The translations under genes were made by a program, and so were the position numbers. Positions 34,945 to 36,383 of a stretch of DNA of 64,000 nt are shown piece by piece. The stretch is taken from IMG/VR virus record IMGVR_UViG_2778261540_000003. One strand, 5' to 3'. How positions within the stretch are numbered: position 1 is the stretch's first letter; every line of letters begins with the position of its first letter. Under the pieces are notes generated by a model. That model was not told the origin of the DNA, made no database searches, and worked only from the letters and a program-made list of their open reading frames with translations. The stretch is from a virus. Taxonomy: Duplodnaviria; Heunggongvirae; Uroviricota; Caudoviricetes.

Positions 34945-35019
34945 ATGACTCATATCGTTAGGAGTGATTTGAGTATGCCGATTATATCTGACATTCAGCA
35001 CGCCTGGGTGGAGTGCTAA
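34945..35019 (+). CDS. Leader micro-ORF translationally coupled to ban
   Basis: 24-codon ORF (MTHIVRSDLSMPIISDIQHAWVEC) whose TAA overlaps an in-frame ban ATG (TAATG at 35017-35021). Confidence 0.3.
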   Translation: MTHIVRSDLSMPIISDIQHAWVEC

Positions 35020-36383
35020 TGTCTGCATCCCCTCTTGAATCCATGCCAAATTCCCTTAGTGCAGAACAAGCTGTACTTGGTGGCTTAATGCTTGATAACT
35101 GCCGCTGGGATGAAGTTGCAGATCGTATAGTTGCTGATGATTTTTATACCAGTGCTCATCGTGAAATTTTCAGTGAGATGGAGAGGTTATTAAGTCATGG
35201 CAAACCGATTGATTTGATAACACTTGCTGAAGCACTTGAACAGAACGGTAAATTAGAACGCGCCGGTGGTTTTGCGTACCTTGCGGAGATGTCAAAGAAC
35301 ACGCCCAGCGCGGCAAATATTTGTGCTTATGCGGATATCGTTCGTGAACGCGCGGTTGTTCGTGAAATGATTTCCGTCGCAAATGAAATAGCCGAAGCTG
35401 GATATGCGCAGGATGGCAGGGGCAGCAATGAATTGCTAGATATGGCCGAGCGCCGCGTTTTTGAAATAGCTGAAAAACGACAAAAGAGCGGTAGTGGTCC
35501 AAAAGATATCGCCAGCATTCTCGATGCAACGGTATCTCGCATAGAAGAGTTGTTTCAGCGACCACATGATGGTGTAACGGGGCTTGATACGGGATTTACC
35601 GATCTCAATAAGAAGACGGCAGGGCTTCAGCCGTCCGATCTCATCATTGTCGCCGCCCGCCCATCTATGGGGAAGACCACGTTTGCGATGAATCTCGTCG
35701 AAAATGCCGCAGTTCGTAACGATAAGCCCGTATTGGTTTTTAGCCTTGAGATGCCGAGCCACCAGCTGATGATGCGCTCACTGGCTTCTCTTGCACGCGT
35801 TGATCAGACTCGTATTCGGACAGGGCAACTTAACGACGAGGATTGGGCGCGGGTTTCTGGCGCAATGGGTATTCTGTTGGACAAGCAGAATATTTTTATT
35901 GATGACTCAAGCGCCCTGACACCTACAGAGCTTCGTTCCCGCGCTCGTCGTGTTTATAAAGAAAATGGTGGTTTGAGCATGATTATGATCGACTACCTGC
36001 AACTTATGCGCGTCCCCGAGCTGCAAGATAACCGAACGCTGGAAATTGCCGAGATTTCTCGCTCACTGAAGGCGTTGGCGAAGGAATTACAAGTACCGGT
36101 GGTGGCATTGTCACAACTTAATCGATCGCTTGAACAGCGTGCGGACAAACGACCGGTAAATTCAGATTTACGTGAATCAGGAGCAATTGAGCAGGACGCA
36201 GACCTGATCATGTTTCTGTATCGCGACGAAGTTTATCACCCGGATAGCGAAATGAAGGGCATTGCCGAGGTAATTATCGGAAAGCAACGAAATGGCCCAA
36301 TTGGCACGGTGAGATTGGCTTTTAACGGCCAATACTCACGGTTTGATAACTATGCTGGTGCTGACTGGCAAGAGGATTATTAA
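35013..36383 (+). CDS. ban: DnaB-family replicative helicase Ban
   Basis: 456-aa ORF with DnaB N-terminal domain, Walker A SMGKTTFAMN and DnaB-type C-terminal motifs; likely true start at the ATG at 35019. Confidence 0.9.
   Translation: MLMSASPLESMPNSLSAEQAVLGGLMLDNCRWDEVADRIVADDFYTSAHREIFSEMERLLSHGKPIDLITLAEALEQNGKLERAGGFAYLAEMSKNTPSAANICAYADIVRERAVVREMISVANEIAEAGYAQDGRGSNELLDMAERRVFEIAEKRQKSGSGPKDIASILDATVSRIEELFQRPHDGVTGLDTGFTDLNKKTAGLQPSDLIIVAARPSMGKTTFAMNLVENAAVRNDKPVLVFSLEMPSHQLMMRSLASLARVDQTRIRTGQLNDEDWARVSGAMGILLDKQNIFIDDSSALTPTELRSRARRVYKENGGLSMIMIDYLQLMRVPELQDNRTLEIAEISRSLKALAKELQVPVVALSQLNRSLEQRADKRPVNSDLRESGAIEQDADLIMFLYRDEVYHPDSEMKGIAEVIIGKQRNGPIGTVRLAFNGQYSRFDNYAGADWQEDY

Follow-up and report, generated by a model that had tools for sequence, protein, structure and literature searches.

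The window analysed here, a stretch of 64,000 nucleotides (nt) of Caudoviricetes DNA (IMG/VR record IMGVR_UViG_2778261540_000003), is by its sequence evidently a variant of phage P1, and the element under study is the 286-nt spacer (34733-35018) between a tRNA gene with a CAT anticodon and ban, which encodes a DnaB-type replicative helicase. We propose that, in the C1-repressed Pban operon, the spacer serves as untranslated leader to the ban-dbn end, and that a short open reading frame (ORF) within it is translationally coupled to ban; we regard this account as about evenly balanced between right and wrong. The first part of the same spacer (34734-34925) appears from sequence comparison to be a conserved structured RNA, previously undescribed and not in Rfam, and this is the new item of the analysis.

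Over 32000-37500 the window shares 100% identity with the P1 records MH422554, MH445380 and MH445381, and 99.1% identity with the P1 reference AF234172/NC_005856 over the 80% that the two have in common; in the part without a counterpart, an SPFH-domain ORF stands where the reference has tciA-tciB-tciC. The spacer is 100% identical to that of reference P1, in which nothing is annotated between trnI and ban, neither the short ORF nor the hairpin nor the RNA module described below. The features at this end of the operon are the following.

34657-34732, plus strand: tRNA with a CAT anticodon, called Met(CAT) by ARAGORN and trnI (tRNA-Ile2) in reference P1
34734-34925, plus strand: putative truncated 5' domain of a structured phage RNA module (BLAST, nhmmer, covariation)
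34960-34964, plus strand: AGGAG Shine-Dalgarno (SD) sequence for the in-frame ATG at 34975, invariant in 86 loci
34975-35019, plus strand: inner short ORF of 14 codons (MPIISDIQHAWVEC) with its stop
34990-35023, plus strand: predicted start-site hairpin, -17.0 kcal/mol, z = -3.36, with 1 of 200 shuffles as stable
35019-36383, plus strand: ban, 454 codons
36383-37381, plus strand: dbn, whose ATG overlaps the ban stop (TAATG at 36381-36385)

A preliminary description of this DNA had pointed out a 24-codon ORF that ends in TAATG on the ban start, and both direct reading and a script bear this out. The ORF runs from ATG 34945-34947 through 24 sense codons (MTHIVRSDLSMPIISDIQHAWVEC) to TAA 35017-35019, whose final A doubles as the first letter of the ban ATG (35019-35021), so that TAATG is formed at 35017-35021; the end coordinate 35021 given in the description is the G of the ban ATG. 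The ban frame is open only from 34992, with GTG 35013 as its first possible start, and ATG 35019 is therefore taken as the natural ban start. It is served by a GGAG at 35010-35013, 5 nt upstream. The TAATG layout stands, and no SD sequence precedes ATG 34945. Before the in-frame ATG ten codons further in (34975), AGGAG(UGA) at 34960-34967 (UAGGAGUGA) forms a -7.1 kcal/mol duplex with the 3' end of 16S rRNA. At the sequence level, then, a ribosome-binding site of the short ORF's own is present for ATG 34975 and absent for ATG 34945, and the 14-codon ORF is therefore the likelier translated version. The short ORF is annotated in none of the P1 records examined.

How much of this layout could arise by accident was gauged with dinucleotide shuffles of the spacer, conditional on the TAATG junction. 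Given the junction, an ATG-started ORF of at least 24 codons appears in 14% of shuffles and one of at least 14 codons in 21%. The junction is itself not rare: TA or TG stands before 19% of all ATGs in the window, which corresponds to ~3% per gene, or 1-2 expected per phage genome. Taken alone, the 24-codon ORF is no more than chance. These numbers feed a rival reading in which the short ORF is a chance frame that is not meaningfully translated, ban is initiated from its own GGAG and AUG, and the hairpin sets a low basal rate of initiation. Excess DnaB-type helicase is harmful, so that a low basal rate would be useful. ORFs of at least 20 codons are common here (117 in 7 kb), radical changes to the peptide are as frequent as silent ones, and the ban SD sequence sits at ideal spacing. 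Set against this reading is the inner start. Given the junction, 1.4% of shuffles yield an in-frame ATG that opens 10 or more codons and is preceded, at a distance of 4-11 nt, by a 5-mer SD sequence; per gene this comes to ~0.3%, a rarity that raises the odds of the short ORF being real. Moreover, 86 loci share the SD sequence and ATG without change, whereas variation is found in the leader's 3' third; the whole length of the occluding hairpin up to the ban AUG is covered by the ORF; and the ban-dbn junction is built alike. We consider a chance frame a tentative possibility, one to be taken seriously without being favored.

The predicted hairpin over the ban start would give the short ORF something to act upon. 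In the predicted fold, 34990-35004 pairs with both the ban GGAG (35010-35013) and the ban AUG (35019-35021), and the same hairpin recurs in the predicted fold of the 136-nt leader. The short ORF covers it from the first base, so that no more than the final 4 nt of the 3' arm, with what remains of the ban AUG, lie beyond the stop. In silico, the ban start is thus sequestered in structure inside a leader ORF. A start buried in a hairpin and an ORF read through that hairpin would amount to the standard geometry of obligatory translational coupling, and it is this combination of a closed ban start and a traversing short ORF that makes coupling plausible. The idea is a reasonable one, strengthened by the start-site hairpin together with the SD-led inner start, and the short ORF probably helps ribosomes to initiate on ban. 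The junction between ban and dbn (36381-36385) shows the same TAATG overlap as that between the short ORF and ban.

Natural variation was surveyed across 87 related ban loci, drawn from viral contigs and from records of phages or plasmids. All but one of the 87 keep the short ORF open, and in these 86 the SD sequence and both ATGs are invariant. The TAATG junction is kept in all variants, and variation in the ORF is confined to its last 20 nt, where A20T, W21R (by two different codon changes), V22M, V22G and C24Y stand against five synonymous changes. The peptide is therefore unlikely, on this pattern, to be functional in itself, and if the ORF matters it would be the act of translation that matters rather than the product. 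Across 10 natural variants of the start-site hairpin, 98.5% of pair cells remain paired, and one pair passes from G-C through G-U to A-U. The single locus without the short ORF (IMGVR_UViG_3300045988_115882, 1-1190) is interrupted at ~34983 by the end of a Mu-like prophage. The Mu-like end, recognized by GemA- and Mor-like ORFs, removes the start and SD sequence of the short ORF and leaves the hairpin and ban untouched; either a genuine insertion or a chimeric assembly could account for it.

Several observations count against the proposal that the spacer is a leader with a coupled ORF. With 10 nt between the AGGAG core and ATG 34975, the spacing is towards the upper limit of what is useful, and the GGAG that ban has 5 nt upstream of its own start would permit independent initiation during transient openings of the hairpin. 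Taken whole, the 136-nt leader is no more stable than its shuffles (z = -0.57); among the single-sequence folds, the 38-nt start-site hairpin alone is exceptional. Covariation in the start-site hairpin is not significant in a shuffle control, there being too little variation. With six non-synonymous and five synonymous variant types among the 87 loci, purifying selection on the peptide is not visible at this low diversity. Phage relatives of Ban fall into two groups, those of 99% identity or more and those of 78% or less, and every one of the 80 viral loci compared lies at 99-100%; for want of intermediates, the conservation of the open frame weighs little. Lastly, a terminator-like hairpin lies ~190 nt past Pban, in the path to the tRNAs and ban.

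The upstream two thirds of the spacer are shared with unrelated phages. When the spacer alone was used as a BLAST query, its first 186-192 nt matched phages without ban at 77-88% identity. The carriers are D6, where the module again directly follows trnI, many lambdoid phages (mEp460, cdtI, Stx2c-converting phages, 1720a-02, Ayreon and 2H10), podophages of the phiV10/TL-2011b type, and plasmids, and a divergent copy is found in a Kluyvera prophage. Among the loci compared, relatives of the module lie at the following positions.

L009:1501-1790
L010:1501-1790
L011:1501-1741
L008 (D6, MF356679):2501-2739
L212:6398-6680

Used as query, a 301-nt lambdoid copy is matched in 1947 of 5426 complete E. 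coli genomes (~36%). At most of these matches nothing is annotated, and the phiV10-type copies overlap an annotated tRNA-Arg. Within the window, nhmmer returns the module as a single match. Downstream of 34925, where the P1 module ends after GGCGCA, a 94-nt ban-specific leader has no relatives outside P1-like elements. The P1 copy thus reads as a truncated module fused to a 94-nt ban-specific leader.

That the module is a structured RNA is supported by covariation. Fifteen representatives, including the divergent Kluyvera copy, were compared under a hand-drawn structure of six helices. In these helices 98% of cells are paired, against 36-46% in controls with slid partners; 7 pairs have changed on both sides, against 0-1 in controls, and the covariation score is 0.209 against 0.03-0.06. 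Two hairpins hold most of the signal, one with GGAT/ATCC (ACGC/GCGT or ACGA/TCGT in other lineages) and one with GCCGG/CCGGC (CCTGG/CCAGG or CCTCG/CGAGG). A third, CGGCG/CGYCG, contributes one compensatory change and several wobble changes. A fourth is hypervariable and differs in sequence by lineage, folding in most lineages and not in the commonest lambdoid version. Long-range helices proposed by RNAalifold are supported by invariant columns only. A candidate pairing would join a loop, GCACAU (34757-34762), to AUGUGC further downstream (34837-34842). The hairpin at 34845-34880 occurs in at least four unrelated versions (P1, P7, RCS47-type and SJ46/Ro157-type) in P1-like elements that are otherwise near-identical, which looks, at the level of sequence, like cassette swapping or diversifying selection.

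Known RNA families were searched for the module without success. Rfam 15 gives no match in 34733-35018 at E <= 1, none in the lambdoid and phiV10 module loci at E <= 0.1 except the true tRNA, and noise only for a 500-nt module input at E <= 10. A full-text literature search with strings from the module sequence likewise produced no match. DicF, AgvB, tmRNA, Y RNA and other known RNA families were rejected as identities of the module for lack of a significant Rfam match, and degenerate tRNA genes were rejected because neither ARAGORN nor Rfam finds any. Protein coding on either strand was also set aside: the frame is not conserved, and indels between module lineages measure 1, 4, 5 and 6 nt, not multiples of 3. 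A 47-codon TTG-started ORF at 34802-34945 (WP_001702255.1; JL22 gp80, hypothetical protein) does overlie the module. It is intact in 51 of 100 ban loci, absent from 17 and in the rest truncated with other N-termini, and the gene call is probably spurious. This 47-codon ORF ends in a TGA that overlaps the ATG of the 24-codon ORF, forming TGATG at 34943-34947.

Full-length copies of the module are larger than the P1 copy. In D6, the lambdoid phages, the phiV10-like phages and Kluyvera, the conserved part continues for another 60-90 nt and is followed by variable 3' cargo. This 3' part consists of a helix CAAC...GTTG around a stem GAGRGCA/TGCTCTY with inserts of 40 to 100 nt, and then GTTGTGG. 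The cargo is a tRNA-Arg(TCT) in phiV10 and either of two unrelated structured segments in the lambdoid phages; it is closed by CCACAAC in lambdoid phages and D6, and a terminator comes next in the lambdoid and phiV10 copies. In mEp460 the element follows the repressor gene directly, shares its strand and precedes the N-side operators. The Stx2c-type element is preceded by a terminator and a promoter matching 11 of 12 consensus positions (TTGACA-16-CATAAT); in P1, the position of the module's own promoter is taken by trnI. The D6 record MF356679 annotates its tRNAs (734-887 and 1353-1439) on the strand opposite to that given by ARAGORN, and leaves unannotated the tRNA(CAT) at 2425-2500 that precedes the module.

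The lambdoid full-length elements (L009:1880-1960, L010:1850-1930) end in CACCACAACAGCC and then a long terminator hairpin. Their 3' end carries CACAACA, which is the consensus of GcvB targets used by the anti-sRNA AgvB (PMC4104026). That the lambdoid 3' end is AgvB itself finds no support, given that AgvB sits 3' of PR' and that the Rfam AgvB model finds no match. One type of lambdoid cargo has a counterpart elsewhere in the P1 window.

32088-32232, plus strand: structured 'dicF-like region' with a terminator-like hairpin at its end (annotation of AF234172; terminator scan)

Although no Rfam family is significant there, 32088-32181 is ~78% identical to the 3' cargo of the Stx2c phage (L010:1762-1857), with compensatory changes in the stems. 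P1 therefore holds two halves of a Stx2c-type element, 2.6 kb apart and in reversed order.

The module invites the reading that the leader works mainly at the level of RNA, as a target of RNase, Hfq or an sRNA or as a 5' stabilizer, the short ORF being incidental. In its favor, the module is conserved with covariation across unrelated phages, and its conserved blocks are invariant in P1-like elements in which the 34845-34880 hairpin swaps. According to a preprint, P1vir in an hfq mutant shows higher ban and dbn and lower trnI at 20 min; opposite shifts of this kind fit a ban-dbn mRNA that is separately processed or regulated. One P1vir transcriptome paper does not mention ban. Other features pull the opposite way. 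The P1 copy is truncated relative to those of D6, lambdoid phages and phiV10 and may be a recombination remnant, and outside P1-like elements the module precedes unrelated cargo (tRNA-Arg, dicF-like hairpins) and never ban. Base-pairing targets for the module within the window are at chance level (three 12-mers against ~1.5 expected), and the module, folded as a single sequence, is not more stable than its shuffles (z = 0.09). On these grounds we think control mainly at the RNA level unlikely. A broader version is, in our estimation, just as doubtful: that P1 co-opted the 5' domain of a widespread structured phage RNA family as a cis element and, together with a hairpin-ORF switch, uses it to set the dose of Ban from a processed tRNA-mRNA transcript. 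On that view the full-length family copies would be units bounded by promoter and terminator beside the lambdoid repressor gene, or linked to tRNAs in D6 and phiV10-like phages, with exchangeable 3' cargo.

The proposal that the spacer is the leader of an operon depends equally on where transcription begins. The relevant upstream features are as follows.

32000-32045, plus strand: sigma-70 promoters P2ban and P1ban with the divalent C1 operator Oban a/b (formerly Op72ab)
32203-32232, plus strand: terminator-like hairpin (8 pairs, GCCCATC-TTCG-GGTGGGC, 32203-32225) followed by T7
32699-32852, plus strand: tRNA-Asn(GTT) and tRNA-Thr(TGT) (ARAGORN; Rfam tRNA 74.5 and 72.9 bits)
32823-33200, minus strand: plp (ORF list; annotation of AF234172 and MH422554)
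33201-33530, minus strand: upl (ORF list; annotation of AF234172 and MH422554)
33802-34629, plus strand: SPFH-domain ORF of 275 codons, 'putative serine protease' in RCS47

When the window was scanned, with mismatches allowed, for the P1 C1 consensus ATTGCTCTAATAAATTT, 14 sites emerged where 0.28 are expected, none of them in the spacer. The spacer 17-mers have at minimum 8 of 17 mismatches to the consensus, and under a weight matrix built from the 14 operators the best of them reaches -7.9 bits, where real operators score 19.4 bits or more. The preliminary description had seen no operator-like 17-mer between the tRNA and ban, and the degenerate motif scan supports it; no ban-proximal promoter with an operator of its own emerged from the spacer scans. 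Near the ban operon the best sub-threshold operator-like 17-mer is ATTGCATTAATAATCCT at 36373-36389 (minus strand; 11.1 bits, 5 mismatches), on the ban/dbn junction and probably there by chance.

Upstream, the picture is already drawn by the reference. The stretch 32000-32045 has the same sequence as AF234172 68651-68696, which carries the annotation P2ban, P1ban and Oban a/b ('controls expression of ban'), and the identity with the reference runs from 31990 to 32231. Its operator 17-mers comprise a perfect match at 32016-32032 (plus strand) and an inverted partner with 2 mismatches at 32027-32043 (minus strand). Oban a/b with P1ban/P2ban is the only operator-controlled promoter upstream on the ban strand. 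Control of ban by a C1-repressed promoter 3 kb upstream is therefore established P1 annotation rather than something new. The preliminary suggestion that ban is transcribed from a distant operator-controlled unit is in keeping with that annotation, though it had left the intervening terminator out of account. Its further assumption, that transcription passes through upl and plp as genes of the unit, fails: both lie on the minus strand, and a ban-strand transcript is therefore antisense to them.

The strong terminator-like hairpin between Pban and ban means that read-through is needed. It would end a DicF-like small RNA; its T run counts T7 here against T6 in AF234172. The order on the ban strand is dicF-like region, tRNA-Asn, tRNA-Thr, SPFH ORF, trnI, spacer, ban and dbn. 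The SPFH cassette is ~86% identical to genes of P88, phiP27 and many Stx2 phages. A match to Rfam STnc100, a Salmonella sRNA, lies at 33431-33551 (plus strand) below threshold (37.8 bits against a gathering score of 47, E = 9e-6), antisense to upl and 5' of the SPFH ORF.

A terminator so near Pban would make a second promoter useful, and one may imagine an unrecognized proximal promoter in the spacer or the end of the module that expresses ban late or independently of C1. The best relaxed candidate in the spacer is GTGACA-19-ATTAAT (34899-34929), and the module forms a transcription unit of its own in lambdoid phages. The candidate is weak, however: it has a 19-nt spacer, and its score is at the median of random 326-nt windows. 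No sigma-70 match of at least 9/12 occurs between 31900 and 35746 in a scan that detects only consensus-type promoters. A late-promoter pattern derived from the annotated LP26 (its -22 box plus TANNNT at LP26's -10 spacing) has no match in the spacer with up to 3 mismatches, a weakly informative result as the pattern is at chance level across the window. The spacer has no operator, trnI occupies the place of the module's promoter in P1, and the curated reference annotation has no promoter there. A proximal promoter is accordingly the least probable of the readings considered, and we think it very improbable.

Put together, the account we prefer, a leader with a coupled short ORF at the end of the Pban operon, would run as follows. 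Transcription would start from 32000-32045 and read through the dicF-like terminator, and the transcript would then carry tRNA-Asn, tRNA-Thr, the SPFH ORF and trnI. Because the transcript contains tRNAs, the ban-dbn mRNA is probably a processed product, freed by tRNA processing and presumably bearing the 190-nt structured module at its 5' end. In the last 94 nt before the gene, the ban ribosome site and AUG would be locked in the -17 kcal/mol hairpin. The short ORF, most likely in its 14-codon version from AUG 34975, would cross that hairpin and stop on UAAUG; ribosomes translating it would unfold the hairpin and finish on the ban start, so that initiation or re-initiation could follow there. 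The same UAAUG overlap joins ban to dbn.

Ban is a DnaB-type helicase able to replace the essential DnaB of the host. Its dosage matters for P1 lytic replication and for the many P1-like plasmid prophages that carry resistance genes in Enterobacteriaceae, and coupling, if true, would mean that a gene thought to answer to the C1 repressor alone is also regulated at translation. By itself, a short coupled ORF adds little out of the ordinary to a phage already studied in depth. More unusual is the RNA module, and the wider value lies there: a covarying module in about one third of complete E. coli genomes that is unannotated, sometimes mis-called as protein and missing from Rfam.

Compared with the P1 ban operon as known (AF234172/NC_005856, with C1/Bof acting at Op72), the variant has the same promoter-operator, spacer sequence and gene order, with plp and upl antisense, and differs in carrying the SPFH ORF for tciA-tciB-tciC and in the T run of the terminator. 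The arrangement of tRNAs upstream of a protein gene has a bacterial parallel. In the E. coli thrU-tyrU-glyT-thrT-tufB operon, tRNA genes and a protein gene share one transcript with no promoter between them, and as there, processing of the tRNAs upstream of ban would create the 5' end of the mRNA. Unlike the thrU-tufB operon, the ban unit is repressor-controlled and phage-borne, has a terminator-like sRNA region near its start, and places 190 nt of structured RNA before the coding region.

For the short ORF, the closest parallels are tap-repA of R1/IncFII and repY-repZ of ColIb-P9. In both, a leader ORF (24 codons in tap) with its own ribosome site stops at the start of a replication gene, and that start is closed by RNA structure which translation of the leader opens. 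The ban locus resembles them in that a short ORF ends on the start of a replication gene whose start is predicted to be closed by structure. It differs in that ban, whose dependence on the short ORF is a proposal, keeps a good SD sequence of its own. Furthermore, in R1 and ColIb-P9 the leader is controlled by an antisense RNA (CopA and Inc RNA, respectively), whereas no antisense promoter or RNA was found at the ban locus.

The RNA module, finally, invites comparison with prophage sRNA loci such as DicF of Qin and AgvB/AsxR (PMC4104026): like them, the lambdoid full-length modules are non-coding, bounded by promoter and terminator, and in a 'moron'-type position. AgvB and AsxR of enterohemorrhagic E. 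coli lambdoid prophages lie 3' of PR' and measure 51-60 nt, whereas the module element sits between cI and the N-side operators and extends over 190-280 nt.

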